DNA from: an uncultured Gammaproteobacteria bacterium | GTDB lineage: Bacteria > Patescibacteriota > Patescibacteriia > 2-01-FULL-39-33 | DNA: 64,000 nucleotides | Assembly: GCA_964573235.1 (NCBI GenBank) | Contig: CAZNIV010000002.1 | Coordinates: 6,102-70,101 of the forward strand | Reading direction: 5' to 3' | Shown: in pieces, positions 1,330 through 54,442 of the stretch | Layout of the letters: each line of letters begins with the position of its first letter | Position numbering within the stretch: the stretch's first letter is position 1 | Translations under genes and position numbers: made by a program | The notes under the pieces: model-generated | Databases searched by the model: none | Told to the model about the DNA's origin: nothing | What the model saw: the letters and a program-made list of their open reading frames with translations, nothing else

Positions 1330-1331
1330 AT

Positions 1332-2402
1332 TTATTTATTTTTTCTTTTTTGTTCGGCTAACGCCCTTAACTCTAATGGTGTGGCATTATCCAAAATAAT
1401 CTCTTCCGATTTATTTTTTTGATCGCTAGACTGGTCTGTGTTATCAATGATTTGATCCTCCACGGGAATAATCATCCATTGTTCAACTGGAATGCGATCA
1501 AATGCTTGGGGAAAAAATTTAATATTACGATAAACATTAAGCATTTTTTTAAGTTTCATTCTATCGGTTGAATCTAATCTCTTGGCGTTCTCTGAGCTGA
1601 TTAAATATTGAGTTAAAGCAATATTTTCAAAAAAACTAGAACCATTTTTTTCAATAAAATCTTGAATATAATTAGCCACAGTAGCTGAAACCATTTTACC
1701 TTTCAAATAAATTTGACCACTAGTTAGTAATTGCTGATTACTATAAAGCGCCGATTCTAAGCTATGCTTAAATTTTGGGTCTTCAATTAATAATTTTAAT
1801 AATACAAGATTATAATCCGTTAAAACTATAGCCATTGCTTCATCAGGAGTAAAAAATTGCACCAAACTTTCTTGAAATAATTTAGGTGCCCATTTTTTTT
1901 CTTCGGCATCATCACTCTCCACGTAAGTCAATTCGCTTTGAGCATCTTCCACTATATCTTCTGGGGTTGGTTCTTCTGCCTTTTTAGCCTCTTCCGCCTC
2001 GCGTTCACGCTCTGCTTCGGCTTCTTGGATAATCTGCTGTTGCCTTTCTACATATTCGCGATAATCAACTACATCACCACCATTATCGGCAATAAATTGA
2101 CTAACTCCACCGTTAAAATAGTTATCGAAGGTTAATAATCGCTTGCCAGCAATTTCTAAAGCTTTAGCCGTAGCCTCTTTGGGCTTAAGTTGCCAATTAT
2201 CTTGAAGATATTTTATCAAATCAGATACTTTTAAATCTTTAGCAAACAAATCAACACTAAGATCAGCAATTTTAGCATAACGATTTTCATCACTAATCAT
2301 AAAAACGGTTAATTCCCCATTTAAATCACCAAAAGATTCAGAAAAAATAACATCTTGAATGTTTAGTGGTAAATTTTTAATTTTAGGTATTAAATTACCC
2401 AT
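1332..2402 (-). CDS. Hypothetical protein with strongly acidic central stretch (EAEAEREREAEEAKKAEE)
   Basis: 356-aa ORF; only a 2-nt gap to the next gene, so it reads as an operon with the flanking minus-strand genes. Confidence 0.5.
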   Translation of the reverse strand: MGNLIPKIKNLPLNIQDVIFSESFGDLNGELTVFMISDENRYAKIADLSVDLFAKDLKVSDLIKYLQDNWQLKPKEATAKALEIAGKRLLTFDNYFNGGVSQFIADNGGDVVDYREYVERQQQIIQEAEAEREREAEEAKKAEEPTPEDIVEDAQSELTYVESDDAEEKKWAPKLFQESLVQFFTPDEAMAIVLTDYNLVLLKLLIEDPKFKHSLESALYSNQQLLTSGQIYLKGKMVSATVANYIQDFIEKNGSSFFENIALTQYLISSENAKRLDSTDRMKLKKMLNVYRNIKFFPQAFDRIPVEQWMIIPVEDQIIDNTDQSSDQKNKSEEIILDNATPLELRALAEQKRKNK

Positions 2403-5460: not shown

Positions 5461-8400
5461 TTATTGTTTGATAACATAAACACCCTTAGTCTGCTCTGCC
5501 GTTCTTTCCCAATTATCAGTTACGGATATATTAATTTTAACACAACACCACGACTCATTACTAGAGATAGGTTTAATTGTTTTATTGCCACAAATAGATT
5601 CCGCTAAAGCATCTTGGCCATCACCACTACAAATAATATTATTTGCTGTTGAAGCTTCTTTAGAGTTTTCTGCCTTAATCTTCCAATAATCATAAGCATG
5701 ATACATTAAATAAGGCGCATCAGGATTAGCTCGATTATCTTTCATAGAAACATTAGAAACAGAGCTGGAATTGCTGTCACCCCAATTAATATTATAATTT
5801 TGAATTGGCAACTGATTAGAGTCAACCGAAACAGTAAAGCCTAATTTAACCGCTTGCTTTTCATAAGCCCAATTTTTATTTGAACCATCTAGAGTAATAT
5901 TAGTAGAAGTAACCACAGGGTCAATATAGCAGTAACTAGAATCATTAGCTCTCACATTTCCCACACAATTAAGGGTAGGTAAATCCCAAACAAATTTATT
6001 TAATGAATCTGTGCTCTCGCCATAGTGATACCAAGACCCTGCTACGTTAGAACAAGAATTGCCCTTATAATCACATGCGGTTGAAATTGTTCTAGAGCAA
6101 TGACCACTAATTATAATACTACTATCACAATCATTACTGTCTGAGCATGGTAATCCTGAATCAAAAATAGTACCACTTGGATCTGTTTTATAGCGACAAT
6201 TTTTATCTACCGTTTTTACTTCAGCGTATTCTAATAAACAAAAATTATTTTTTTCTATATCCGTACTCCCTAAACATTCACGGCCATCAAACTTACCACC
6301 ATCACAAACACCATTATCGCATTTAACATTACTATCACAAGAAACTAAACTATTTAATACAGACGAAGGTGTTGTGGTGCATCCAATTCCATCATTAGGA
6401 CCACCAACACATACATAATTTTTAACCGGATTATATGGGTCCTCCATACAAATACCATCCCTAATATCAATAAATGCGCCATAGCAATCCTTATTAGCCT
6501 CTGCCTGACTCAATCCGAAGCACTCACTAGAAGTACCATAAAATAAACTTGAGAAATCAGTGAAATCAGCACAAATACCCTTACCCGTTGTCGTCTTCCA
6601 ATTTTCGCAACTATTCGATACTGAATTAACACTTAAACAAGTAGTTGAAGCGAATGCGGTTGATGAACTAAACCCATCATTAAACCCGCCCACGCAAGTC
6701 CATTTTGTTATTTTGTTAGTAACTATTGGCCAAGTACATGAGTCACGAGTTGCGGTTTTATCAGAACCCTCATCTTTAACACACATATTTTCTCGATCAA
6801 TTTTTTTATACTCCCATTCACCATAACTTCTAGCAAATATACTCTTTAATAATTCTCTTGATTCACCAATAGAGTTAGTAGTCGCTACGATTTTACAAGT
6901 TGTTCCATTATCAAGACAAGTATCTGGACTAAGCGCTGCAAAAGGATAACACTCTTCACCAGTAGGGCAACCCAAATCACCAAGACCAATTGAAGATCTA
7001 GGTATAGTATTGGTAGAATTTCCTAATTGTAATTGAACACCGCTAAGAATAATAGAATTAACCACACCATATGCTAAACAATTTGTATGAGAAATACTAC
7101 ATAAACCAAAACGCTTACAATTATCCCCATCGCAACCAAAGGTAACACCCTTGCCCATTCCCATAGTATAAGGCTTCCCTCCATCCCACATATAAGGATC
7201 ATAGTCTGACTGTGGCGTAACCAATGAACCAAAGGGATATTTACCTGAGTTAATAGTTATGGGCACTAAGTCATTTCGCAATAAACGCACATTTAATACC
7301 CCACCTGGGTTAGTCAACCAAAAATTATCACCAGCGGAAAGCCTACTATACCAAGCCTTGCTATTGCCCGCATCGTCAACCACTTGCTCTACATACTTAC
7401 AGTAACCAACATTATTAGAACTAACCGCCTTATTATAATCCATTATCGTACCACCATCAACATCTTTCAGATAAACCTGAACACCTTTTTCTTTTTCATC
7501 AAAATAGGAATTATCATTCTTTTTAATTTGTTGCAAATCACCATTATACTCATACCATCCACTAGTATTTGCATCAGTATAAATCGAATCTCTCTTCACT
7601 AAATCTGCCAATACCGGCTTACAATAATCCCATGTTTTAACGCTACCATTTTTAAATAAACCGGCTTTTTTTATTTCATCATCATGATGATAAAAATAAC
7701 CAAATGGACATTCACCACAGCCAGAACCACGACACTGTTGTCTTAGCGTGCCACTTGGATTATAATTTTTATCTTCAATTTCAAAATTATTTATAGGTGA
7801 TCCCAAAACGGCATCCAATAAGTTTCCAGTTAACGCCGTAACCTTAGGAAAGGTATAGCTAGGATGCCAAAAGAAAACAGTATTAACGCCAGCATAAATA
7901 AGACCAGGAGGGCCAAGCCACTTATACCAAGCGGCGCTATTCCAAGCCGATTTTATTGTTTTACTGGTATAATTAAACAAAACCACTTCGCGATGCTCCA
8001 CCAAATGCATATCACCCTCAAGAGCGGCACAATAATAAAGTGGGAAACTCTTAGAGAAATAATAAGGTTCGCCATCACCCTTAATTTTATCAACTGGCCA
8101 CCACTGCAAACAAATCTGTGGGTTATTAGGATCGGAAACCATACAAAAACCTTGCCAGCCATTATACATGTCACCATTTTTAACATAATTACAAGCCTGG
8201 GAATCACCTTCGGGATATAAACGACAACTACGAGAAATATAAATATTGCTATTATTTACATCCTTTCCGGCCTCTAAAATTGGCTTTAAACTAATTAGGT
8301 CAAACAAAGAATAACCACTAACATCACATTGTCCATCAAGATTGGAATCCAAGCACCCAGTTGTTACCGTAGTACTAGCCTGCTGAATTGTCATACACTT

Positions 8401-11400
8401 AGTATTTTGACCAGAGCCAACGGTAGCAAAACAATTTTGCACACTTACATATAAAGCGCCACCATTTTGATAAACCTCAGGTGGTAATGGCTTACTAATT
8501 CGTTGCCAAGGCAAACCAGCAGAAACGGTATCAATGACACGACCATTAACCGAAATCAAAACTTTAGCCTGAGGTGACGGATAAAGGTAGCTAGTATTAA
8601 TCCAGGCGGAGAAAGAATATGCATTATCGCCATCAACACTTATAGGATTAGAACGAACAGTTCCATCAGCATTAACTTTTAAATAACCAATTCCTTCTTT
8701 TCTATCTGTTTTACTAGTTGCAACCGAAAATTTATCTATTGTCCAGGCAGTATCAACTCCTGGTTTCCAACCAATTGGTTTTGGCTGATCGGCATTATAA
8801 ATATATTCAAAATCAGAGTTAGCAATGTTAGCATCCTCACCAACTTGCGACATTAAATGATAAGGATAATAACCCAATACCGTAGAACTACTCTTGCCGG
8901 ATGCATTAGGTATTTGTTTCCCTAACATTGAGTAACCAGTCTTGTTAATATCTAACCCTTTATCATAAACCGAAATTTTATTCTGATTATTAACAAACAA
9001 AGAACAATTACCCATACCATCTAAGGCGGAACATAACGCTAGACCTAAGCACTGGTCACTAGATCCAAGCACCGGATTAGGATCGTTAACATTTCCTTTC
9101 TCAAAGGTATTACAATATAACCAAGAAGCACACTGTCTATCTGGTTGAACTTTAATCACGGCATTAGCGCTAACATTAGACTTTAAGCCACTACTATCGT
9201 CATTCGCCTTATTAACAGCTATTGCCTGACTAGTGCCTACATTCTTATTTTCAATATAGTCCGCATCATAAATCAAATAAGAGCGATCTCTAGTACTAGG
9301 GTTATCGGCATAATTAACAGCACCGCGATCATTTAATAAAACACACCCCTTACGATAATCCACCATACCCTGACAACTAGCTCTACTATCAGTCATCTGA
9401 TCTGATAAATTATAATAAACTCCTGATTCTGTTAATTTTACATCAGTAACACTACCACTGGCGCCAACTAATAGGGTGCAATTTTTAGTGTCCCTTGCAT
9501 ACAAGCGACCACTGACCGAAGATGATGCTATTAAATTATAATTCAAAGATGCTGAACTGCCATCACTAGAAATAACCATGGAACCATCTGGCGACCGCAT
9601 TGAACCTTCACTACACTTAACATCAATGGCCACTTGACCATCTGCTAACATTGATAAGGAGTATAACCTATCATCTATCAAGTTAACATCCTGACTTACT
9701 ATTCCAGTCACAAAAGAATGAGTGACCTCTTTTTTATAATTAAACCCAATACTATTAATCTCCCAACCGTCTGGACGATTTATATCTCCTAAGTTTTGAC
9801 TAAAATCACCATTATATAATAAGCTGGCATAATTATTAGTTAATGGATCAATGAATTCCGTACAAGAGCTTTGTGAACTAGGGCAAACACCAGCCCATTT
9901 CATATTCTGATCTGGTTGTAACTTTTCAGAAACCACACCCAAACCAATAGTTTGATAAGGCGAAGTATCACACAAACCATCTTCGCCCATTCTGTACCAA
10001 GCCGGAGTCGAACTAGTCGTTAAAGATTTAAACTCACATACTTGCTGGCGAGGATCTTTAAAATAATTATAAGTATTATTAGTTGCGTATTCACCACACC
10101 ATAAATTTTCCGCTCGACATAAAGATCTAGAATATGTTTGCGGATCATTCTTAATATAGACCGTACTATAACCCATTACCTCGTTGCGATTATTAATAAC
10201 TGGCTGACCATAGGCCGAGCAACCCTTGTTCTCTGCTAAACAACTAAACTTTTTATCATTTACAATAAACGCTAAATTATCTTTTACCACTGAAACCGAA
10301 TCGGCTGTGGCCACAGTTCCGCCAAAACTTTCAGAAGAAGTAGCATTAGAATTATGGGTATCAATCATCGCTTCACAACCAACCGCCTCAGCGCGACATA
10401 GACTAGTAAATGATCTCAAATAAATAGGGTCAACATTATCAGTTTTATTATTATATGCTTGGCAACCTAACATTTCACCGGGATTGCAACGACCATTAGC
10501 GCAAGCCGTGCCAGTTGGATCGTCTAATTTATTATCACAACTATTGGGAGTGAACCAAGAATTTTCAATAACATAAACATTACCCTTCACCTCTTTGAGG
10601 GTTATATTGTCTATATACAAGTCATTGCCAATACTATTAGTAGCTCCTGGATTAATTGTTAAATCCTGCCAACCATCATCAGCAAAAGTAACAAAAACTG
10701 GACCCAAATCATAGCGTTGCCATTCATTGCCAATATGCACTTTAGGCACATTCAACGAAATGTTTTGCAACTGACTCTTAGCAAAATAATCACTCTGCTC
10801 TGAAGCGCTACTAAATTTAATACTCTCTAAGTCAAATCCAGCGCTACTGGCATGATCATTGTCGCCACCCGGATACCCCTTAGCCCAAAAACTTAAAGTA
10901 TAGGTATGATTTCTTTTAACATAAACCTGCTTAGAGGTAGTGGCCTTAGTGAACCAAGAAAAACCACCCACGGCAGTAGAAACAATACTTAAATTACTAT
11001 TACTACCACTCCAATTACTATAGCTATTATCAAAATTATCATTAACTAAGAAATTAATATCATTACTCAAATTGCCCGTATATTCTCGGCAACCCACAAA
11101 AGAAGCTGAGCAAGATTGCCCCATTTTTGGAACCGCCATATACACGCACTCCTTTTCATCACTCCAAAAACCATTATTACTAACACAATCACATTGCGTA
11201 ACAGAAACATTTTCATTATTCAACTCTGCGCATTGCGTAGTTAGACTTGGGTCTTGAGTTAGCGTACGACGATATGGATGACAATCATCCGTAACATAAA
11301 TAACCTTAGACAATAAGCGATAATAAACATCGCCATTGGAATCATAAAATTCTCGACAATCGGCATTAGGCGCAATATCAACACCATTAGCGTTATACCC

Positions 11401-22022: not shown

Positions 22023-22051
22023 TTGACAATTTAGCCAAATTAAACTAAGAT
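22023..22051 (+). promoter_or_regulatory. Sigma70-type promoter for island A gene 1 (TTGACA-17-TAAGAT)
   Basis: -35 at 22023-22028, 17-nt spacer, -10 at 22046-22051. Confidence 0.5.
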
Positions 22052-22110
22052 ATTCCTCACGTACATTACAGCGAATTAACGCCAACCAACCGGAAAGGAT
22101 ACATGAGTGT

Positions 22111-22491
22111 ATGTGTAAAAACGCACTTTTGTTTCTCTTTTCCCTGATTCTGATTTTTTCGTGGTTTTCTGCGGTAATTGCGACAAAAGTGATTCCGAGC
22201 CAATCCGGCACTGTCACTTTCGTTCAATCCAGCGACCACGAGCTGAAATTTACCCCGTATTTTCCCAAATCGGAGCGTGACCCTCAACCGTCACTCGCCG
22301 TTTTGCCAGAAGAACCGGTAAAAATCAACAAAATCAGACACCTTCCACCAAGCAAAATCGCGTACAAAGCGAAAACTTGGGCGGATGAAAACAGGGAAAT
22401 TCCAGGGTTTTTGACTCTGCCGGGCCCGGCACGCAACAAAGATCCGTGTTGCCAAGAGGCACGGAAACTTGTAGTCTCGACACGGACCTAG
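22111..22491 (+). CDS. Island A gene 1: secreted 126-aa protein of unknown function (GC-rich, foreign codon usage)
   Basis: Signal-peptide-like N-terminus MCKNALLFLFSLILIFSWFSAVIA; GGAAAGGA SD at 22092-22099; CTG/CCG/GCG-rich codons unlike flanking host genes; terminator follows. Confidence 0.5.
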   Translation: MCKNALLFLFSLILIFSWFSAVIATKVIPSQSGTVTFVQSSDHELKFTPYFPKSERDPQPSLAVLPEEPVKINKIRHLPPSKIAYKAKTWADENREIPGFLTLPGPARNKDPCCQEARKLVVSTRT

Positions 22492-22520
22492 CAGAGAAAA
22501 ACAAGAGTCTGTGCCTCTCC

Positions 22521-22546
22521 AGCGCCATAACATGGCGCTTTTTTAT
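22521..22546 (+). terminator. Intrinsic terminator after island A gene 1
   Basis: 8-bp stem agcgccat/atggcgct with 3-nt loop, followed by TTTTTTATTT. Confidence 0.6.
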
Positions 22547-22591
22547 TTGTCTAAATTTAAACAATTTAATTGATTTTAAAACCAAAATATA

Positions 22592-22620
22592 TTGACAACA
22601 TAACTTTTATGTGGTATAAT
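22592..22620 (+). promoter_or_regulatory. Perfect-consensus sigma70 promoter for island A gene 2 (TTGACA-17-TATAAT)
   Basis: -35 at 22592-22597, -10 at 22615-22620. Confidence 0.65.
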
Positions 22621-22663
22621 ACAGAAGTCGTACATTTAACCGCAACCTCAACTGGAGGATCTC

Positions 22664-22768
22664 ATGAAAGACCTCGTCTTTGTGCTGGCCGTCGGAGTGA
22701 TCTTCGTTTTCATCAAAATCATGAAAGTGCTCCTTGGTGAAAACAAGCAGGCGAAAAAACCCGCTTGA
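22664..22768 (+). CDS. Island A gene 2: 34-aa hydrophobic single-helix peptide MKDLVFVLAVGVIFVFIKIMKVLLGENKQAKKPA (type-I-toxin-like or small membrane peptide)
   Basis: GGAGGA SD at 22654-22659, 4 nt before the ATG; GC-rich codons; sits between the consensus promoter and the terminator. Confidence 0.55.
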   Translation: MKDLVFVLAVGVIFVFIKIMKVLLGENKQAKKPA

Positions 22769-22794
22769 ACACCTCAACCGCCACCACAACCAAA

Positions 22795-22823
22795 AGGCCC
22801 CCGCTGATCACGGAGGCCTTTTA
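22795..22823 (+). terminator. Intrinsic terminator after island A gene 2
   Basis: ggcccccg / cggaggcc stem with palindromic loop tgatca, then a T-run. Confidence 0.6.
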
Positions 22824-22867
22824 ACTTTTATCCTATTTTATAATGTAATATATAAAATTTAGCAAAA

Positions 22868-26369: not shown

Positions 26370-26930
26370 TTATCTGGATTTAACGAGCAATTCTCCGGCT
26401 TTGATGGGTGGGTCTTCTTTGAGCCCTGCATCATGCCGAAAACGCCCATAAATATCAGTGACTTTGGCATCAGTGATATCACTCTGCCCACAACGCTGAC
26501 AGCGACTACTGGCATTTGCTAAATTAATAGCCATTTGCCAATAGCGCTCTTTACTTGCCTCCTCTTGTGCCGTTACCGCCCAAACCTTTTGGCGATTATA
26601 AACAACACAAGCAACAACCACGGCCAACATCATAGCGGTAAACGTCATGCCCACTAAGTGACGATGATGTCGCACCCAGCGCTTGGCTAACACCCAAGTG
26701 ACAACCGTCGGGTAAGCCACCATCAGAGTTAAGACTACCGGCCAAGCCAATAAGTCTTTAAACCGAATCAACGACTGGTTGCACTGAAGCTTTTTTTCGT
26801 TTTGCCGATGATTGCCCCAGCATTTTTGCATGTAATCCAGCTGAGTCGCGCTAACAATATGGTTATCTACGCGATCAGTTGGCACTGTGTCACTGCTCCA
26901 CGGGACAAAGGGGTGACAGATTTTCATCAT
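26370..26930 (-). CDS. Island B: 186-aa protein with two TM helices and a Cys/His-containing C-terminal domain, unknown function
   Basis: AAGGAGGA SD at 26945..26938, 7 nt before the ATG; GC-rich E. coli-like codons; TM segments WPVVLTLMVAYPTVVTWVL and LVGMTFTAMMLAVVVACVV. Confidence 0.55.
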   Translation of the reverse strand: MMKICHPFVPWSSDTVPTDRVDNHIVSATQLDYMQKCWGNHRQNEKKLQCNQSLIRFKDLLAWPVVLTLMVAYPTVVTWVLAKRWVRHHRHLVGMTFTAMMLAVVVACVVYNRQKVWAVTAQEEASKERYWQMAINLANASSRCQRCGQSDITDAKVTDIYGRFRHDAGLKEDPPIKAGELLVKSR

Positions 26931-27022
26931 AGAAACATCCTCCTTGGGTTGTGGTTGACTGATAAATTATCATTATATAAACAGCTCTAAGCTGATTGAT
27001 AAGGTACGATAAATAACTCATT

Positions 27023-27051
27023 AGTATTTCATATTTTACCACTTTTGTCAA
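27023..27051 (-). promoter_or_regulatory. Promoter for island B gene (TTGACA-17-AATACT), -35 overlapping the divergent truD -35
   Basis: Minus-strand TTGACA at 27051..27046; -10 at 27028..27023. Confidence 0.4.
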
Positions 27052-28550: not shown

Positions 28551-29135
28551 TTATTTGACGCAGGAGAAATGAACACTGCCCGCGGTGTCCATGGAGATAC
28601 CCATGTGGTTGATCTCCTCCAACTTGTAGCAATCAGCCGTCCGGGAATGGGACGGGTTAATGGTGATCGAGCGATCCGGGTTGTCGAAAACATGGACAAA
28701 CTCGAACACTCGCTCCATGATCGCCTGGATGGCAACTTCCGCCTCCTTGCTCAGCTGAACGGGTTCACCGTCAGCAAAGTTCAGATACAGAAAGCTCATG
28801 TGATCTCCGGCCTTCTTGATGATGTTGGTGCCAATCAGGTTGAACCCGATCGCCTTCATCTCGGCCATAATGCGATCGAACGAAATCATCGTCCAACCCG
28901 TGGGCCCCCAACCAGTGCGGGGCTTGCCGGAATCAGCCTGGCGATTGCCGGCCGCGTCCGTGCGATTGCCACGGAACGCATCCTTGCCAAGCTGCTCGGC
29001 CTGAAACGCGTGATTCTCGATGATCTCGCGCTGTTTGGCCTGACTCAGCACGGCCTTGGCGATACCACCAACCTTGCGAAGCTCTTCAGCGGCGGAGTCG
29101 GCAATACGGACACGAATCAGAATTTTGGTAACCAT
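28551..29135 (-). CDS. Island C gene 1 (194 aa), unknown function
   Basis: AGGAGA SD; its own consensus promoter; strongly GC3-biased codons (ctg, cgt, gcc, ggc, atc, aag). The overlapping plus-strand 225-aa ORF is rejected. Confidence 0.65.
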   Translation of the reverse strand: MVTKILIRVRIADSAAEELRKVGGIAKAVLSQAKQREIIENHAFQAEQLGKDAFRGNRTDAAGNRQADSGKPRTGWGPTGWTMISFDRIMAEMKAIGFNLIGTNIIKKAGDHMSFLYLNFADGEPVQLSKEAEVAIQAIMERVFEFVHVFDNPDRSITINPSHSRTADCYKLEEINHMGISMDTAGSVHFSCVK

Positions 29136-29213
29136 TTTTTTCTATCTCCTGTTTGTTGGGCATTATTGCCCGTTGTTGATGTACGATACACTTACTTGTA
29201 CAAGTGACCCATT

Positions 29214-29242
29214 ATTATAGCACACATCGCCAAAAATGTCAA
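29214..29242 (-). promoter_or_regulatory. Perfect-consensus sigma70 promoter (TTGACA-17-TATAAT) for island C gene 1
   Basis: Minus-strand -35 at 29242..29237 and -10 at 29219..29214; the 5'UTR carries the palindrome GGGCAttatTGCCC at 29158-29171. Confidence 0.65.
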
Positions 29243-29334
29243 TACATTTGACCTTATTTTACCCTATTTTAGCTATTTTAAACCAAATTTAGCCAAAATA
29301 AAAAGCCCCACTTATTGCAGGGCGTAAAGATTAC

Positions 29335-29820
29335 TTAGCCTCGATGACTCAGAACAATCTGGCCATCGATAACGTGCATATCCAAGTAAGCACGCTTTTT
29401 GACCGGGCAATCCAAGCGATTGCTCGAGCCAGTTAAACGCAACACGGTTAGTTCGGGCTGTTCCTTGACGGCAAACACCTCAGCCAGGTGGCGATATTCC
29501 ACTAATTGCCGACGCAATACATAACCCACCATCTCGGGAATGCCACTGCTTTTCTCTTCGCTTATATCCACGGCCAGCCAAAGACTTTTGCCATCGGCTC
29601 CCTTCCAGAACCAAAAAGTCTGGAGTTTTAGGTTACAACTATTAAGGGCGCTGATAGCTTCCCCAATAAAGATATTTTTCCGTCCGCCCATCTCCCAACC
29701 CTTGACCAAAACGCGGGTCTGAGTGGGAATGGGATTGACCGATTGTGGCACCAGACCAGAATCCAGCAACTTTCTTGCCAAGTCTGGTAACAGACACACT
29801 CTGATTTGAATTGTTTGCAT
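29335..29820 (-). CDS. Island C gene 2 (161 aa), unknown function
   Basis: AAGGAG SD 6 nt before the ATG; GC-rich codons; no dedicated promoter, sits downstream of an attenuator hairpin. Confidence 0.6.
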   Translation of the reverse strand: MQTIQIRVCLLPDLARKLLDSGLVPQSVNPIPTQTRVLVKGWEMGGRKNIFIGEAISALNSCNLKLQTFWFWKGADGKSLWLAVDISEEKSSGIPEMVGYVLRRQLVEYRHLAEVFAVKEQPELTVLRLTGSSNRLDCPVKKRAYLDMHVIDGQIVLSHRG

Positions 29821-29844
29821 TACTACTCCTTACGATTGAGTGTT

Positions 29845-29867
29845 AAAAAGGCTCGCGAGTGCGAGCC
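29845..29867 (-). terminator. Intrinsic terminator or attenuator between island C gene 3 and gene 2
   Basis: ggctcgc-actc-gcgagcc hairpin followed by TTTTT on the minus strand, only 12 nt before the gene 2 SD. Confidence 0.55.
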
Positions 29868-29888
29868 AAAATTGTCACCATCGCAATG

Positions 29889-30395
29889 CTAGCGACAGAT
29901 TATCTCCAACAGACCAGATGTATCGTCGCGACTGACCACAAAGGTGAACAAGTGGCCATCAAACTTGTGATCGGGAATGGGATTAGCCGCCTTGATTTGC
30001 ATTACCATGTCCGGATTTTCCGAATCATTCGCATTGCTAAAGGCGATAACACTTTCAAACACATGATCATTCAGCCAGTTGCGAATGAACTCCATCTGCA
30101 GGGGGCGTTTCGAGTTGCGACGAGTGAACTCCAACCGCAGATAACGCCGATGCGCTTCTTCGGTTAGTCCCACTTCGGTCAAGCGAAGCGCAACCGAGTC
30201 AACATCTTCCAGTAACCCCGCCAAACTGACACCATGGACGGTGTTCTTGGCGCCATTGATGCCGTGCTGGGTACCGACGAGACGCATCTTCGCCTTGTCG
30301 ACCGTAATGCCAATCTCTTGACAGCGATCATGCGCCGCCAAAGTAAGACCAACAAAGATAGTCAACACCTCTTCCTGCTCTCTTCTCTTTGGCAT
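29889..30395 (-). CDS. Island C gene 3 (168 aa), unknown function
   Basis: AAAGGGAGGAA SD 7 nt before the ATG; GC-rich codons. Confidence 0.6.
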   Translation of the reverse strand: MPKRREQEEVLTIFVGLTLAAHDRCQEIGITVDKAKMRLVGTQHGINGAKNTVHGVSLAGLLEDVDSVALRLTEVGLTEEAHRRYLRLEFTRRNSKRPLQMEFIRNWLNDHVFESVIAFSNANDSENPDMVMQIKAANPIPDHKFDGHLFTFVVSRDDTSGLLEIICR

Positions 30396-30457
30396 GGTTC
30401 TTTCCTCCCTTTATTGCTTGGTTGAACACTTATCAAACTAATTAAACGTACAAAAAA

Positions 30458-30496
30458 CTTAGTTATTGGTTTACCACATAACTAAGCTTCTGTCAA
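30458..30496 (-). promoter_or_regulatory. Island C operon promoter (TTGACA-17-TAAACC) overlapped by a perfect 9-bp inverted repeat, a candidate operator
   Basis: IR arms cttagttat (30458-30466) and ataactaag (30478-30486) with an 11-nt spacer cover the -10 region; -35 at 30496..30491. Confidence 0.45.
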
Positions 30497-44279: not shown

Positions 44280-45848
44280 ATGACCGATAAAATTTTAGCT
44301 CAAATTATTATTTCTATCACTACCAACACGCCTAGTAATGACGTGGATCTTTATAATTTGATTCGTAAAACATCTGGCGCTTTAAAAATGGCACCACCGC
44401 AAAAATCAGCGTTATTAAAAGCTTACCATAAATTAGTAAAAAGTAAAAAAATTACTCCTAATGAAATCTTAGAAAGATTATTACGCAAACGCGCCGTGCG
44501 CACCCTAAGCGGAGTGGCTGTTGTTTCCGTTTTAACCAAGCCATACCCTTGCCCCGGAAACTGCTTATACTGCCCGAGCGAAAAAGAAATGCCTAAAAGC
44601 TACCTTTCCAACGAACCGGCGGTAATGCGCGCTATCATGAATCAATTTGATCCATTCAAACAAGTAACGGTACGCCTTAAAGCACTTAAAGAAACTGGCC
44701 ATGATACTTCTAAAATTGAATTAATCGTGATGGGTGGCACGTGGTCATACTTTTCTAAGCAATATCAAAGTTGGTTTATTAAGCGTTGCTTTGAGGCTTT
44801 AAATGGCAAATCATCATCCGGCTTAGCTGTTGCCCAAAAGAAAAATGAAACCGCTAAGCATCGTTGCATCGGTTTAACATTAGAAACGCGTCCTGATTAT
44901 GTTGATGAAAAAGAAATCAAACAAATGCGCAAATTAGGTTGTACTCGCGTCGAGTTGGGCATTCAACATATTGATGATCAAATATTAAAAATGAATCGCC
45001 GTGGTCACAACACCGCTCAAAGCATTAAAGCGATCGAGCTATTGCGTCGTGCCGGTTTTAAATTAAATTTTCATCTCATGCCAGCACTTTACGGCTCTAC
45101 GCCAAAAAAAGATTTGCTCATGTTTGAAATATTATACAATGCACCAGAATGGTTGCCAGATATGATTAAAATTTATCCGTGTGTAGTTACTGATAATTCT
45201 GATTTATATAAATTGTGGAAACAAAAAAAATATCGCCCCTATTCTGATAAAAACTTATTAGAACTTTTGATTGCGATTAAAAAAATTACTCCGCCTTATG
45301 TGCGCATTGCCCGCTTAATTCGTGATATTCCTGAAGAAAGTATTAAGGCCGGCAATAAAATTACCAACTTACGCCAACTCATTCAAAATGACGCTAAAGT
45401 AAATGGCTGGGCGTGCCAATGCATTCGCTGTCGCGAAGCAGGTCATCAACTTTATGACATTGAAACACCAAAATTAAATACCTTAGTTATGCCAGCGTTA
45501 GGTGGCACAGAATATTTTATTTCTTTCGACTCACCAAATAAAAAAGTGCTATACGCTTTTACCCGCTTGCGTATTAATAATTCGGATGTTAAACAATTTA
45601 TTCCCGAGTTGCGAGGCGCTGGCTTAATCAGAGAATTACACACCTACGGTGAAGTAACCGCTATGGGCCAAAAAGGCGATGTACAGCATTCTGGTTTTGG
45701 CCGAAAATTATTAACTGAAGCCGAAACTATTTGTCGCGAACAAGGCTTAAAAAAGATTGCCGTTATCGCGGGCATTGGGGTCAGAACTTACTACCAAAAA
45801 ATGGGTTACTCTCTGCAAGGAACTTACATGGTAAAAAATTTAAAATAA
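44280..45848 (+). CDS. elp3: Elp3-family radical SAM/GNAT tRNA uridine(34) modification protein
   Basis: Cys cluster KPYPCPGNCLYCP, about 520 aa, C-terminal GNAT-like region. Confidence 0.75.
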   Translation: MTDKILAQIIISITTNTPSNDVDLYNLIRKTSGALKMAPPQKSALLKAYHKLVKSKKITPNEILERLLRKRAVRTLSGVAVVSVLTKPYPCPGNCLYCPSEKEMPKSYLSNEPAVMRAIMNQFDPFKQVTVRLKALKETGHDTSKIELIVMGGTWSYFSKQYQSWFIKRCFEALNGKSSSGLAVAQKKNETAKHRCIGLTLETRPDYVDEKEIKQMRKLGCTRVELGIQHIDDQILKMNRRGHNTAQSIKAIELLRRAGFKLNFHLMPALYGSTPKKDLLMFEILYNAPEWLPDMIKIYPCVVTDNSDLYKLWKQKKYRPYSDKNLLELLIAIKKITPPYVRIARLIRDIPEESIKAGNKITNLRQLIQNDAKVNGWACQCIRCREAGHQLYDIETPKLNTLVMPALGGTEYFISFDSPNKKVLYAFTRLRINNSDVKQFIPELRGAGLIRELHTYGEVTAMGQKGDVQHSGFGRKLLTEAETICREQGLKKIAVIAGIGVRTYYQKMGYSLQGTYMVKNLK

Positions 45849-45873
45849 AAAAGCTGAGCACATGGCCCAGCTG
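45841..45873 (-). terminator. Weak hairpin plus T-run downstream of island D gene
   Basis: agctg...cagct stem and the ccagctgg palindrome; TTTTTTATTTTA on the minus strand. Confidence 0.3.
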
Positions 45874-45913
45874 GTTGCTTGTTAATCGTTAGTCTCGTTA
45901 GTCGTGATGGCGA

Positions 45914-46201
45914 TCAGATATGGACCGCTACGGAGCGACCGTGAAGATGCTCCTCGCGCTTCTTGAACTCTTTGGCACACTTGTCATTGCAAACATGGCC
46001 GATATGCACGTCGATTGACCGCACCGGAATGCGGTAATGACCATGCGGATCCTTGTCGCTCAGCGGATTCAAGCACAGCAGACACTGTTCGGGGATCTCG
46101 ACCTGCGGCCGGTGATGCTCAGCCGAAATTTCCGGCGGAATCATCGTCGCAACATCGTCACCTTGAACACCCGCACCGCCCGTCCCTGTTGATCCTCCCA
46201 T
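45914..46201 (-). CDS. Island D: 95-aa Gly-rich N-terminus plus Cys/His-rich putative zinc-ribbon protein, unknown function
   Basis: AGGAGG SD 7 nt before the ATG; CxxC...HxH...HIGHVCNDKC pattern; GC-rich codons. Confidence 0.55.
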   Translation of the reverse strand: MGGSTGTGGAGVQGDDVATMIPPEISAEHHRPQVEIPEQCLLCLNPLSDKDPHGHYRIPVRSIDVHIGHVCNDKCAKEFKKREEHLHGRSVAVHI

Positions 46202-46285
46202 GGCTGTTCCTCCTCTTGCTTGGTTGGTTTAGGCACTACTCACACAAATTTTAAAAATAAAAGAACGATTTTACACGGTCTTCTG

Positions 46286-46314
46286 ATTATAGGATAAAAT
46301 CGCCTTTATGTCAA
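46286..46314 (-). promoter_or_regulatory. Perfect-consensus promoter TTGACA-17-TATAAT for island D, abutting the rsmE stop codon
   Basis: -35 at 46314..46309 sits directly next to the rsmE TAG at 46315-46317. Confidence 0.65.
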
Positions 46315-47025
46315 CTACTTAATCATCACCACGCTAGCAACGGCCAACACAGCCGTTTCAGCCCGTAAAATGCGTCGCCCCAAAGAAACTATTTGCCATT
46401 TAGCCTTCTTAGCTGATTCCGCTTCGTTTTTACTTAATCCACCCTCTGGGCCAATCAAAATTGCTACCGAACCGCTAATATTTTTTAATTCTTTCGCTAA
46501 AGATAAATCCGTCGCCTCCTCCCAAGCAAAAAACTTATTTTTCTCCGCACTATTTTTTAAGACAAAATTTAAATCTACTTCTGGCGCCAATTCCAATAAC
46601 TTATTAGCTCCACATTGTTCCGCCGCTTCCTTAATAATTTCTTGATAACGCTTTAATTTCTGCTCTGAGATACTTCTGACAATACAGCGCTCCGTTATTA
46701 CTGGCACCACTCTTTTCACTCCTAATTCCGCGCATTTTTGCAAAACCAATTCAAACTTATCCGCTTTAAGCAAACCGATATACATCGTTAAATCTACTTC
46801 GGGATCAGGTTTGGCAAATTGCTTATCGATCAATAAAAAAACAGCTTGCTTATCATCCACCTCAACTAATTGCCCAATATATTCAAAGCCATCACCATTG
46901 AATAAACCAAAGCGATCGCCCAACTGAACGCGCAACACCTTTTTTAACTGATGGCAAAACTCCCTATCCACTACATTGATATAATCGGATTTAAACAAAT
47001 CGGCTGATAAATAAAATCTTTGCAT
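46315..47025 (-). CDS. rsmE: 16S rRNA (uracil1498-N3)-methyltransferase RsmE-like
   Basis: PUA-like N-terminus plus SPOUT C-terminal domain (GPEGGLS). Confidence 0.75.
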   Translation of the reverse strand: MQRFYLSADLFKSDYINVVDREFCHQLKKVLRVQLGDRFGLFNGDGFEYIGQLVEVDDKQAVFLLIDKQFAKPDPEVDLTMYIGLLKADKFELVLQKCAELGVKRVVPVITERCIVRSISEQKLKRYQEIIKEAAEQCGANKLLELAPEVDLNFVLKNSAEKNKFFAWEEATDLSLAKELKNISGSVAILIGPEGGLSKNEAESAKKAKWQIVSLGRRILRAETAVLAVASVVMIK

Positions 47026-49201: not shown

Positions 49202-50155
49202 TCAATTCACACCGACCAAATCCTCTTTGTTTATCACAGCAATTTGCCAATTGTGACAAAACTTAAATTGAATGTCATTAGAGCAACAATTAAACTCCTC
49301 CATAATCAGGCGAATTACCACATTATGCGTTAACCGCATCAACGCATCCAAGCGGTTATTGCGACTGGAAAAAATATCCCAGTCTGTCGTCATCTGTTGA
49401 CGTCGCCAAATCTTCACTCCCTCCGCGCTATCCTCAACATTATCCGGCCAGTAATCCTGACGGACCTGATCGAAAAAATGTGTCAATGAATAGAGTTGCT
49501 TAATCGGCTCAGAAATAACCACTCCCAAAACCGAGTCACGCGAACTGGCCGCCGGAAACCGATCACCCAAAGAGCTTTTGATTTTTGAGCGACCGGTAAT
49601 GATTTCTTCTACACAACGGAAGTAATCATTTAGGAAATGATAGCCCGACCTAAACATCAGTGGCAATTGCTCATCGAAATCAGCGGCCACAATAACATGC
49701 CAGCCGTAGCAGATGTCCCACTCGCTGGCCGGATAAGCCAACAATGGGTGCTGAGAAATAATCGACTCATCAAACATGTCGGCAATGATATTCAAGCACT
49801 CATCTTCCGCCTTCAAAAAACTGAGAAACTCAAGCTTTTTTTCGGGCGGCAGAATAGCTGCGTGAGCGATATCAATCGGGCCACTGGGAACAATTCCCGC
49901 ATTCAAGCCATAATCGGCCACCATACAATCCTTCATGAAAAGCCGTTTTTGCCTTTCATAATATTTCTCCGCCAACTGGTAAAGATACCACCAGCGCTTT
50001 GGCCCATCGCCATTAACCACACCCCAAACTCGGCTATTTTCTTCCACCTCGTCTTCATTCGGCTCAATACCGGAAAACTTTCTGAGCGGAACCTTATCCT
50101 TAAAACCTAAGCGTAAAACTTCGCTCAAACGAAGGGGTTTCATTTTGTAGCTCAT
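49202..50155 (-). CDS. Island E gene 1 (317 aa), unknown function
   Basis: Start MSYKMKPLRL with AAGGAGGA SD 5 nt upstream; the track ORF is over-extended to 50212. GC-rich codons. Confidence 0.6.
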   Translation of the reverse strand: MSYKMKPLRLSEVLRLGFKDKVPLRKFSGIEPNEDEVEENSRVWGVVNGDGPKRWWYLYQLAEKYYERQKRLFMKDCMVADYGLNAGIVPSGPIDIAHAAILPPEKKLEFLSFLKAEDECLNIIADMFDESIISQHPLLAYPASEWDICYGWHVIVAADFDEQLPLMFRSGYHFLNDYFRCVEEIITGRSKIKSSLGDRFPAASSRDSVLGVVISEPIKQLYSLTHFFDQVRQDYWPDNVEDSAEGVKIWRRQQMTTDWDIFSSRNNRLDALMRLTHNVVIRLIMEEFNCCSNDIQFKFCHNWQIAVINKEDLVGVN

Positions 50156-50218
50156 AACTTCCTCCTTGGGTTGTTTGGTTGCTATTTTTACTGACTTTTT
50201 TATAAAGAACACCCCTTT

Positions 50219-50247
50219 CTTTTACTCCAATGGGCTTATTTTGTCAA
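50219..50247 (-). promoter_or_regulatory. Promoter TTGACA-17-TAAAAG for island E gene 1
   Basis: Lies immediately downstream of the E2 terminator T-run. Confidence 0.45.
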
Positions 50248-50249
50248 TT

Positions 50250-50286
50250 AAAAAACCCGCCGCAGTTTTAGACAAACTTTGGCGGG
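50250..50286 (-). terminator. Intrinsic terminator after island E gene 2
   Basis: cccgcc...ggcggg stem then TTTTTT on the minus strand. Confidence 0.65.
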
Positions 50287-50307
50287 TAACACGATAACCC
50301 TGGCGAT

Positions 50308-51273
50308 TTAGTGGGCGAACTTTTTGATGGTAACCACTTGCCACCCTTGACGCAACCCAATAACTCTGGGGCAATTGGCACCGACGGCATCGCGCATCGC
50401 GATTTCGTTCAGGCCATTAACAAGATTGATCATCTCGTTGACTCTGGCAAACTGATCATCCAGAAACCGCGCCCGATCAACCGTTTGCTTGCCCATCCAA
50501 ACATCGAAGGCAAGTTTATTGTTTATGTTGTCGGGAACAATCCCGCTGGCATATTCTCCGATGCGCTCCAGCAACAGACACAGCCGCGGAATAATCGGAT
50601 CATCAACTTCGCAAAGCACCGTTTCTTCGTCGCCAACTGGCGGGAGATTAAAACCATGGGCTTTGGCGACAATCAGGTCGGAGCTATCAGAGAAAATCTC
50701 CGTCAGTCGAGCGAACAAATCGCCGACATACTCGCTCTTGGGAATGGGCTCATAATCCATTTTCCTGGCAACGGCAACACACCAGCCGTTAGTGATTTGC
50801 GGTATGGCTTCCTGGCAAGCCGTGATCGGGAATTCCGAGTGCACCGCCTCCCAAAAAAGAGCGCGCCACAATGAAGCCTGAGACCTGGCATGGATAACCG
50901 CCTCGTAAAGCTGTTTGGCCTTTGGATCGGTTTCAACGACACTCTTAACCTTGCCCGCCCCTTGACTCACCTCTTCCAGGTCAATCGCGAGCATCATCTG
51001 GTCTTGGGAAAATTGACACATCGTGATACCCTGACCAAAACCAGGAGCACCCGACATGTTCCGGCGGAGAAGCTCCACCAGTTCCTTGTGACCGTTATTC
51101 GCTTCGTCGATTTTCTTATCAACCAGCGCCAAAATGGCCTGGCCGATCGGATTTTTCATCGTACCGATCACGACACGACCATCTTCCAGTTCTCCATTCG
51201 GCTCAAAGCCAGAAACCGGTACTTGGCCAGAAAAAATCCGGCACAACAATTCACTCGTTCCGCGACGATTCAT
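50308..51273 (-). CDS. Island E gene 2 (321 aa), unknown function
   Basis: Start MNRRGTSELL with AAGGAGA SD 7 nt upstream; the track start at 51279 is a GTG. GC-rich codons. Confidence 0.6.
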   Translation of the reverse strand: MNRRGTSELLCRIFSGQVPVSGFEPNGELEDGRVVIGTMKNPIGQAILALVDKKIDEANNGHKELVELLRRNMSGAPGFGQGITMCQFSQDQMMLAIDLEEVSQGAGKVKSVVETDPKAKQLYEAVIHARSQASLWRALFWEAVHSEFPITACQEAIPQITNGWCVAVARKMDYEPIPKSEYVGDLFARLTEIFSDSSDLIVAKAHGFNLPPVGDEETVLCEVDDPIIPRLCLLLERIGEYASGIVPDNINNKLAFDVWMGKQTVDRARFLDDQFARVNEMINLVNGLNEIAMRDAVGANCPRVIGLRQGWQVVTIKKFAH

Positions 51274-51332
51274 GGTCACTTCTCCTTATGCTTTCTTGGT
51301 TGACTAACATTTTATACAAAGAACGACTCATA

Positions 51333-51361
51333 TTATTAACATATTAAAGCTAATTTGTCAA
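51333..51361 (-). promoter_or_regulatory. Promoter TTGACA-17-TAATAA for island E gene 2
   Basis: Read directly from the sequence; follows the host exonuclease terminator at 51373-51408. Confidence 0.4.
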
Positions 51362-53377: not shown

Positions 53378-53406
53378 TTGACAAATAGGCAAATATGTGC
53401 TATACT
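53378..53406 (+). promoter_or_regulatory. Promoter TTGACA-17-TATACT for island F, followed by a perfect 7-bp inverted repeat at the predicted +1 (53413-53427)
   Basis: TCGTCAC-a-GTGACGA lies right at the transcription start; about 148-nt 5'UTR with a GGCC-caaaa-GGCC hairpin before the SD. Confidence 0.55.
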
Positions 53407-53560
53407 CCAGAGTCGTCACAGTGACGATTTTAGATATAATTGTTCCTTTCATTTTTATTTGAAATTAACAAGCCGGGTGGTTTGTTGATGATAGGATAGG
53501 GGCATGTCGCCCGCAGTATCTGGAAAAGTAGGCCCAAAAGGCCAAAGGAGGAGAGTTCCC

Positions 53561-54343
53561 ATGAATACGACAAACACAAACCCCGCCACCGTCACCGTCG
53601 CCAAGGGATTGATCGAGTTCAACTCGACAGTCTTGGCAGGAATCGTTTTCCGCAAGGAAGACAAGCCGGCCATCAAAGAAGCAACCGAGAAAGTCGCCAA
53701 CGGGCAGTTTCTGGTTCCGCCGGACAACTCCGACGAGCTCCAGCAAATCGGCATCAGTGATGCCAGCCAGAGCGAGAATCTGCTCGAGTTGCAGAAGGAA
53801 CTCATCAAGCTGGTGAAAACTGGCAAAATGGGTCCGATATGCTTGACTCCGGCTGTTCCCCAGACCACCGTGACCGATGTTCGCATGGAAAACGGCGTAG
53901 TCAAGCGCGAGTTCCCCTCGCACTTGGGTCTGCCGGTTATCGTGGCACAGAACGGCCGCAAGGAGTTTCTCCAGCCCCGCTGGTGGTACATTGGTGCTGA
54001 GATCGGTACCGATCTCGTTCCCAGGTTCACCTGCTGGCAGTACGTCGCCACCCTCGACCGGGAAACTGGTCAGTGGTGCTGGAAGCCGGTTCTGGATGAT
54101 CGTGGCGAACATCGTTGCGCCATGGCAACCGGCGATCGGGTAAAACATTTGGTCGGAGCGAGCTGGAGCCATATGGACCACTTCGTGGTTCCGTTGGTGA
54201 ACAAAGCACGCGAATTGGCCAAGAAGGAAGCTAAGGCGAGCACCATTGTCGCCGCTGCCTTCACCCCGCCCAAGCCCCGGCCCCTCGGCACCATCGGCGA
54301 CGCCATGGCCGCCAAGTCCAAAGGCGCCCACCAGGCCGCCTAA
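53561..54343 (+). CDS. Island F (260 aa), unknown function
   Basis: AAGGAGGAGAG SD before ATG 53561 (the track start 53504 is in frame upstream); GC-rich codons; Ala/Lys/Pro-rich C-terminal tail. Confidence 0.6.
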   Translation: MNTTNTNPATVTVAKGLIEFNSTVLAGIVFRKEDKPAIKEATEKVANGQFLVPPDNSDELQQIGISDASQSENLLELQKELIKLVKTGKMGPICLTPAVPQTTVTDVRMENGVVKREFPSHLGLPVIVAQNGRKEFLQPRWWYIGAEIGTDLVPRFTCWQYVATLDRETGQWCWKPVLDDRGEHRCAMATGDRVKHLVGASWSHMDHFVVPLVNKARELAKKEAKASTIVAAAFTPPKPRPLGTIGDAMAAKSKGAHQAA

Positions 54344-54364
54344 ACCAAACAAACCACCCAAACC

Positions 54365-54442
54365 CAGCCGGGCCTACGAAAGTACGCCCGGCTGTTCAAT
54401 TTTTAAGCGAAACAAAAAACGGGCTTTCACCCGTTTTTTATA
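54365..54442 (+). terminator. Tandem double terminator after island F
   Basis: cagccggg...cccggctg (8-bp stem) followed by aaaacgggc-tttca-cccgtttttt. Confidence 0.65.

Follow-up and report, generated by a model that had tools for sequence, protein, structure and literature searches.

An orphan gene behind the promoter at the rsmE stop codon, and a set of GC-rich, Shine-Dalgarno-led genes, in a Patescibacteriota contig

Phage morons, a concept reportedly due to Hendrix and colleagues, are single genes lodged between others, each transcribed from a promoter of its own up to its own terminator and set apart by base composition. They are the closest concept, in function and layout, to the element analyzed here, which we call island D. 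It lies between rsmE and elp3 in a 64,000-nt stretch (hereafter the window) of contig CAZNIV010000002.1 from GenBank assembly GCA_964573235.1, an uncultured bacterium placed by GTDB in the Patescibacteriota; all positions are counted from the first letter of the window, whose G+C content (GC) is 0.386. Like a moron, D is a single gene with a strong promoter, an intrinsic terminator and a deviant composition, situated at a junction of conserved gene order. It differs from morons in its backbone, which is a housekeeping chromosome (rsmE, elp3, glyA, folD, S6, S18, SSB, EF-P) and not a prophage. Neither D nor the similar islands described below gave a clear PHROG match (D gave none), and the four that were tested had no relatives among viral contigs. 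Moreover, the promoter of D appears to be resident rather than imported, and the islands depart from the backbone also in their translation start.

Other described systems resemble the locus in part. As with integron cassettes, a promoterless cargo placed behind a resident promoter would fit island D, although no attC site is present there. Work on Flavobacterium ribosomes reportedly showed that Bacteroidota-type genomes translate independently of Shine-Dalgarno (SD) sequences, with a few genes keeping one. By analogy, a strong SD is confined in the window to a small subset of genes and is missing from the ordinary ones, which would imply two initiation modes in one cell. Yet the SD-bearing set of the window consists entirely of GC-rich orphans at synteny junctions and not of a conserved autoregulated ribosomal gene. 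We lean, with confidence only a little above even, toward the view that D is a genuine accessory gene, transcribed on its own, that arose by a cargo swap and is one of at least ten moron-like acquisitions from a single unsampled gene pool.

Promoter and cargo at the rsmE junction

The 466-bp gap between the stop codons of rsmE and elp3 is wholly occupied by one transcription unit, that of island D (Table 1). As the first-pass annotation of this DNA had proposed, a perfect TTGACA-17-TATAAT promoter starts at the base beside the rsmE TAG. The −35 box was located at 46314-46309 and the −10 box at 46291-46286, separated by a 17-nt spacer, and the site matched the consensus at 12 of 12 positions in the promoter scan. 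Only three perfect sites of this kind occur in the window, and all of them stand in front of island genes. Transcription is predicted to start near 46279, giving a leader of about 78-84 nt; a leader had been expected, but with a length of about 90 nt. It runs from an AT-rich stretch through CCAACCAAGCAAG to AGGAGG, 7 nt and the ATG. Within it, the first part of the cargo contains the C/A-rich tract with CAACCAAG at 46226-46219, followed by the SD at 46214-46209, which lies 7 nt ahead of the ATG at 46201 and agrees with the earlier description. The unit is complete (promoter, leader, SD, small Cys/His-rich open reading frame and terminator) and, as the earlier reading implied, anomalous in composition: the GC of its coding sequence (CDS) is 0.566, whereas that of the window is 0.386 and that of the two flanking genes 0.38-0.39.

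At the 3′ side, the hairpin at 45872-45852 has an 8-bp stem with five G-C pairs and a 5-nt loop and is followed by TTTTTATTTT. The resulting U-tract (45851-45842) overlaps the elp3 stop codon at 45846-45848. A scan of 1.2 kb picked up no terminator-like site other than this hairpin, which is also present in the minimum-free-energy fold. It is thus an ordinary intrinsic terminator, and the earlier judgment that termination would be weak was not upheld. As the scan found no terminator between rsmE and D, read-through from rsmE would also cover D. We also observed a tandem 9-mer, TCGTTAGTC ×2, in the 3′ untranslated region (UTR) of D, at 45886-45903 (plus-strand letters).

To see how the junction is arranged elsewhere, as the first-pass annotation had suggested, we turned to related genomes. 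The closest RsmE proteins in the databases are 42-49% identical and come from Patescibacteria assemblies. A scan of genome contigs with RsmE as the query returned distant bacteria only (≤40% identity) and no close relative, and an exact look-up of Elp3 gave no record. In three lineages (proteins P0003 on contigs L065/L066, P0017 on L063/L064 and P0009 on L068) the gene that follows rsmE on the same strand encodes a 125-aa DksA/TraR protein with a C4 zinc finger (PF01258); this gene is AT-rich and lacks an SD. L059 and L067, which represent two further lineages, have a gene for a beta-helix protein in that place. Elp3 was found after rsmE in none of the five related lineages, so the two genes are not normally adjacent, and the rsmE-D-elp3 junction is a synteny breakpoint.

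Inspection of the same junctions showed that relatives with 45-49% identical RsmE carry a −35 box that is located at the rsmE stop codon or overlaps it and that drives the DksA/TraR gene. The promoter reads TAA|TTGACA-17-TAAAAT in L065/L066 and TAAgaa|TTGACA-17-TATAAT in L063, and in L068 a TTGACG box overlapping the TGA stop codon is followed after 17 nt by TATAAT. On this sequence comparison, the promoter at the rsmE stop is resident and presumably ancestral, and the new part in this organism would be everything past the −10 region. The proposal that the promoter formed part of a foreign cassette consequently did not hold. The earlier note had also asked whether related genomes carry the same gene at this position. 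What they carry is a different gene in the same slot, behind the same promoter, with no detectable similarity to D.

The DksA/TraR gene of these relatives shares with D its slot after rsmE, its strand, a promoter on the rsmE stop codon, the small size of its product and four C-terminal cysteines. The D protein nevertheless lacks the C-x2-C-x17-C-x2-C spacing and the coiled-coil N-terminus of the family, the two show no detectable homology, and the base composition and initiation signals of the DksA/TraR genes are opposite to those of D. Comparison of D with the DksA/TraR proteins of the relatives gave no BLASTP match at E ≤ 100 and an hhalign probability of 0.2%. With these values and no Pfam match, we rejected D as a divergent DksA/TraR protein. 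No dksA/traR-like gene was found by tblastn elsewhere in the window.

No signature of mobility was detected at the locus. Terminal inverted repeats and target-site duplications flanking D are absent, and the longest word shared by its flanks, CAAGCAA, is not significant (p about 0.11). Similarly, D has no attC-like repeat and no shared end sequences, and the sole hairpin on its 3′ side is the 8-bp terminator, although an integrase was not searched for.

GC-rich, SD-led genes of the window

Island D is not a one-off but one of 10 GC-rich orphan genes in the window (GC 0.45-0.59, GC at third codon positions 0.49-0.74; Table 1). An SD-like motif (GGAG, GAGG or AGGA in the 20 nt before the start) precedes 10/10 of these genes vs. 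0/40 backbone genes (Fisher p = 1e-10). A C/A-rich tract usually stands ahead of the SD: CAACCAAG occurs seven times in the window vs. 1.9 expected, and CAACCA-N5-20-GGAGG five times vs. 0.16 expected, with four of the five upstream of island genes. An exact TTGACA box lies ahead of 9/10 island genes, with leaders of about 45-155 nt; the gene without its own box, encoding 161 aa, comes after the 168-aa gene. The leaders that were tested folded no better than shuffled sequences to any significant degree, and a shared leader word, GTTCTTTNTA, is marginal (3 sites vs. 1.1 expected).

The two classes are separated by codon usage as well. Under a leave-one-out codon model built from the islands, every island gene scored positive in its own frame, with the reverse for backbone genes; under the backbone model the island genes were negative, except for one marginal value (+0.05). 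For each amino acid, the choice among synonymous codons is shifted toward GC; examples are Pro with 0.82 vs. 0.29 and Leu with 0.75 vs. 0.33 (island vs. backbone).

Searches with the island proteins returned little. Nine scanned proteins had no match of note in Pfam, NCBIfam or PADLOC, and the single weak PHROG match was that of the 168-aa protein (E = 0.014). Six proteins looked up in sequence clusters were singletons annotated as hypothetical and found in this organism only. The two proteins of islands E are distant tandem paralogs (21% identity, E = 5e-6), and a profile built from both matched only itself. Viral-contig scans for D, E, F and the 194-aa protein found no relatives.

The islands interrupt a conserved backbone. 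Its order, compared with L067, is EF-P, S18, SSB, S6, UPF0020 methyltransferase, YchF, RNase T, folD, glyA, rsmE, and the islands lie at junctions of this order. The E pair occupies the RNase T-folD gap, which measures 68 nt in L067, and D comes after rsmE. The slot of island F (UPF0020 methyltransferase/YchF) holds a PGA_cap gene in L067 (4681-5799) in the opposite orientation; island F may be another replacement rather than a pure insertion.

Look-alike cassettes were found in two of the lineages with a DksA/TraR gene. In L063 (8106-8375; region 8040-8500, minus strand) an 89-aa orphan with a GC of 0.56 has a perfect TTGACA-17-TATAAT promoter and a GGAG SD. In L068 (1078-1584; region 940-1670, plus strand) a 168-aa orphan with a GC of 0.62 and a signal-peptide-like N-terminus has the initiation region cccaaaacccaagcgtAAAGGAG, in which a C/A-rich tract is combined with an AAAGGAG SD. 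All but one of the genes neighboring the two cassettes lack an SD, and the cassette proteins show no sequence similarity to the island proteins of the window. We found no description in the literature of such a pattern of SD-led, GC-rich orphans in genomes of the Candidate Phyla Radiation (CPR).

The remaining islands differ in layout. Island A′ (22592-22830) combines a promoter with a TG extension, the initiation region CAACCTCAAC-TGGAGGA and a terminator of its own. It resembles a gene for a small membrane peptide or a type-I toxin, and a 60-aa open reading frame (ORF) on the opposite strand is probably spurious. Both E genes are preceded by a separate TTGACA promoter, the leader word GTTCTTT..TA..AAAA and an initiation region of the form CAACCA...GGAG. 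A perfect promoter at 29242 serves the 194-aa gene of islands C. Between the 168-aa and 161-aa genes of the same islands, a terminator-like hairpin, GGCTCGCactcGCGAGCC followed by TTTTT, was noted at 29821-29888 on the minus strand, about 20 nt before the SD of the latter gene, a position suggesting that expression of the two genes may be attenuated or uncoupled. In L068, an ADP-ribosylglycohydrolase gene of host-like GC (0.41; 7532-8611, plus strand) has a strong AGAGGAG SD, and so the SD is not strictly tied to high GC in this clade. Many backbone genes of the window have a −10-like box very near the ATG, which suggests leaderless or short-leader initiation.

Table 1. Features of the island D locus and other GC-rich islands of the window.
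Feature	Position	Strand	Evidence or remark
elp3 (radical SAM + GNAT), convergent to D	44280-45848	+	Pfam domains
Intrinsic terminator of D	45842-45872	-	Terminator scan and minimum-free-energy fold
3′ UTR of D	45873-45913	-	Sequence; stops in all 3 frames within 40 nt of ORF end
95-aa orphan CDS of D	45914-46201	-	ORF list; TGA stop 45914-45916; GC 0.566
Candidate Cys4 zinc ribbon (C40, C43, C71, C75), flanking His, basic KEFKKRE tail; residues 38-83	45953-46090	-	phmmer, hhalign
Start of GC-rich cargo (C/A-rich tract, SD, spacer)	46202-46241	-	Motif layout common to sister islands
AT-rich first part of 5′ leader, unstructured	46242-46285	-	Sequence; fold z = +1.03; no Rfam match at E ≤ 1
Sigma-70 promoter TTGACA-17-TATAAT	46286-46314	-	Promoter scan, 12/12 consensus matches
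rsmE stop codon TAG	46315-46317	-	−35 box begins at adjoining base
rsmE ORF	46315-47025	-	Pfam Methyltrans_RNA, 1.6e-46
Island A	22023-22830 (with A′)	+	126-aa protein, hydrophobic N-terminus; CDS 22111-22491
Island A′	22665-22769 (CDS)	+	34-aa hydrophobic peptide MKDLVFVLAVGVIFVFIKIMKVLLGENKQAKKPA; perfect TTGACA-17-TATAAT at 22592
Island B	26370-27051	-	186-aa orphan with hydrophobic stretches; CDS 26370-26930
Islands C	28551-30496	-	194 aa (28551-29135), 161 aa (29335-29820), 168 aa (29889-30395)
Islands E	49202-51361	-	317 aa (49202-50155) and 321 aa (50308-51273), between RNase T and folD
Island F	53378-54400	+	260-aa orphan (53561-54343); TTGACA-17-TATACT at 53378; own terminator

The island D protein

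The D protein is an orphan. A word-indexed search of 5.8 billion clusters and an exhaustive phmmer search of 1.84 billion representative proteins each returned D itself only, and no matches were obtained in Pfam (even at E ≤ 10), NCBIfam, PHROGs or PADLOC. Using tblastn, we found no match in phages and one chance match in plasmids (E = 6). Scans of viral and JGI metagenome contigs with back-translated D gave no match, and neither did a scan of metagenomes with an exact pattern of the elp3 end.

The Cys/His pattern given in the first-pass annotation proved exact: C40-LL-C43, H53-G-H55 and H66-I-G-H69-V-C71-NDK-C75. Residues 38-83 align weakly with residues 4-44 of RLP24 in phmmer searches of PDB (E = 2.2 and 0.93), with the four Cys, a G-H, a V-R strand and an F-K-K tail in register. 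Against an eL24/RLP24 profile of six sequences, taken from those printed by the PDB searches, hhalign gave P = 8.9e-4 and a probability of 23% over 40 columns at 40% identity, in a comparison chosen post hoc. The N-terminal zinc ribbon of eL24/RLP24 is often labeled as a TRASH domain by PDB depositors. The canonical TRASH motif is C-x2-C-x(19-22)-C-x3-C, which the D motif, C-x2-C-x27-C-x3-C, misses by a spacer that is five residues too long; the corresponding spacer in RLP24 is 22 residues.

D resembles these ribbons in its C-x2-C and C-x3-C pairs, a G-H that follows the first knuckle, a V-R strand and, beyond the last Cys, a basic F-K-K tail, and differs from them in its longer spacer, the weak statistics, the lack of a Pfam match, a 37-residue Gly/acidic N-terminal extension, additional His and a bacterial context. 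The zinc-binding module suggested earlier is a reasonable reading in that all four Cys align with ligand Cys of eL24/RLP24, though the alignment itself is weak. A Cys4 ribbon of eL24/TRASH type is our best guess at the structure of D, as a likeness and not as family membership. With nine His, the protein may also have a direct role in metal handling.

AlphaFold2 (AF2) models built from the single sequence had a mean predicted local distance difference test score (pLDDT) of 55.2 for the full length and 57.6 for residues 34-95, and a Foldseek search of PDB with this low-confidence model found no match at E ≤ 0.001. The first 37 residues are rich in Gly, Asp and Pro and contain no hydrophobic segment; the protein is therefore probably cytosolic.

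Origin and coding status of island D

For the cargo swap that we favor, the ancestral state would be rsmE followed by a promoter with its −35 box on the rsmE stop codon, driving an AT-rich, SD-less DksA/TraR gene. A GC-rich segment of about 370 bp (about 45873-46241) would then have replaced the dksA/traR-like gene behind the resident promoter, bringing its own C/A-rich tract, AGGAGG SD and 95-codon orphan ORF, probably in a step coupled with the rearrangement that placed elp3 downstream. Transcription of D would run from about 46279 to the hairpin and U-tract at the elp3 stop codon, yielding an mRNA of about 430 nt, and read-through from rsmE may add to it. With an open C/A-rich leader and a strong SD, D would be translated in an SD-dependent manner, unlike every backbone gene in the window. 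The predicted product is a cytosolic protein of 95 aa with a disordered Gly/acidic N-terminus, a C-terminal Cys4 (C-x2-C/C-x3-C) ribbon, extra His and a basic tail; most likely it binds nucleic acid, another protein or the metal itself. All ten islands share their codon usage and the design of their initiation regions, which may reflect either a single unsampled donor pool or selection for a particular mode of expression.

Several observations weigh against this reading. The D ORF is short, and an open frame of equal length follows the ATG in about 5% of shuffled sequences. Being an orphan with only two single-nucleotide variants, D offers neither conservation nor a substitution pattern in support of its translation. 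The likeness to eL24 is weak (probability 23%) and comes from a comparison chosen post hoc, the x27 spacing lies beyond the canonical TRASH range, and model confidence is low (pLDDT 55 and 58), with no Foldseek match. No donor was found for any island, so that a foreign origin is argued from composition, SD use and synteny. In addition, the 3′ end of the 16S rRNA lies outside the window, which makes SD use by the ribosome of this organism a prediction.

The main alternative for the origin of D is that promoter, leader, SD, gene and terminator arrived together as one mobile unit, a fully autonomous foreign cassette. This is suggested by the other islands and the L063 cassette, which start with an exact TTGACA and often have a perfect −10 box, by the three perfect promoters of the window, all of which precede island genes, and by the GTTCTTTNTA word that some leaders share (3 vs. 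1.1 expected). The −35 box is, however, on or beside the rsmE stop codon in three lineages that have dksA/traR and not D, the promoter and early leader of D are AT-rich like the backbone, and the locus lacks the terminal inverted repeats, target-site duplications and attC-like ends of a mobile unit, and we regard such an origin as unlikely. The shared slot, strand and promoter position raise another reading, in which D is a functional but non-homologous substitute for the 125-aa DksA/TraR protein of the three lineages, retained under that promoter as a zinc protein of small size that would act on RNA polymerase or some other core machinery. Both proteins are small with four Cys in the C-terminal half, and the tblastn search of the 64-kb window detected no dksA/traR-like gene, although one may lie elsewhere in the genome, given that the search covered the window. 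The negative BLASTP and hhalign comparisons, the different Cys spacing (x2/x27/x3 in D vs. x2/x17/x2) and a Gly/Pro-rich N-terminus in place of a coiled coil make this substitution improbable. We assign an equally low probability to a broader proposal, in which GC-rich, SD-led orphans, instead of being random acquisitions, form a distinct clade-wide class with its own initiation signals (C/A-rich tract and strong SD), by which the translation of accessory or effector genes is gated apart from that of housekeeping genes, for example through the availability of the 16S anti-SD tail. D would then be a class gene that displaced a DksA/TraR regulator under the resident promoter; in the radical form of this proposal, the organism is an episymbiont and the genes would be adapted to expression in its host cell, which would have a higher GC and use SDs.

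It is also conceivable that the D ORF is not translated, being an inert foreign remnant or a non-coding RNA whose frame is a by-product of high GC. In dinucleotide shuffles an open frame of at least 95 codons followed the ATG in 4.9% of cases and occurred in any of the six frames in 37%, so that ORF length alone is weak evidence and the combined signals count; the orphan status of D and the low AF2 confidence are likewise in line with a lack of translation. Against it, the AGGAGG lies 7 nt before the ATG, and the frame spans the GC-rich segment from the SD almost to the terminator. GC at the three codon positions is 0.67/0.42/0.61, giving the order GC1 > GC3 > GC2. Of the six frames, the annotated one scores highest with a codon model derived from the other islands (+0.195 bit/codon, compared with −0.42 under the backbone model). 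Nine sister islands share the same 5′ design, with ORFs of up to 321 codons. Together, the ideal SD spacing, codon-position GC, codon model and sister ORFs favor D as a protein. The CDS folds no better than shuffles (z = +0.96), nor does the leader (z = +1.03), and Rfam gave no match at the gathering threshold and none at E ≤ 1 over 45780-46380. Both the leader as a riboswitch or other structured RNA and the whole island as a non-coding RNA were rejected on these values, and we consider an untranslated D distinctly unlikely.

D alone is a modest small orphan gene, and its interest comes from its context. What deserves attention is the cargo swap under a conserved promoter, together with the division of the genes into two classes. 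The swap suggests that a resident, strongly conserved promoter can be reused by cargo that brings only its own ribosome-binding site. If the two-class pattern is genome-wide, accessory or effector genes of an uncultivated CPR lineage could be recognized by a simple rule read from the sequence, and an unsampled donor pool would be indicated. The two-class split also raises the question of whether two modes of translation initiation operate side by side in these organisms.

An assembly chimera or contaminant, in which GC-rich reads of another organism had been joined to an AT-rich contig, could be suspected from the sharp jump in composition and from several short contigs that end in or near island D, one of them in a Nextera adapter. 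A search of public data yielded seven other contigs that match the window at 99.9-100% identity across both junctions; they belong to six assemblies or runs, for which two or more assemblers had been used: ERZ27300137 (L001), GCA_037133135.1 (L056), ERZ4201038 (L057), ERZ27300065 (L058, L060), Logan SRR7053310 (L061) and ERZ27300082 (L062). The L062 contig covers rsmE-D-elp3 continuously. The contig breaks near D fit low coverage (2.1 in the header of L057), and the signals of D fit exactly between two stop codons. The locus is not an assembly artefact, and a chimeric origin is extremely improbable. Only two variants were detected across the seven contigs. One, T>C at 46167, is non-synonymous (V12A) and lies near the contig end in L056; the other, C>A at 46222 in L062, falls inside the CAACCAAG tract upstream of the SD. 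Contig L001 (ERZ27300137 k141_528431) ends, at 4862-4904, in the untrimmed Nextera adapter CTGTCTCTTATACACATCTGACGCTGCCGACGA plus index, and this adapter end accounts for the false C-terminus LSLIHI of the database protein P0001.

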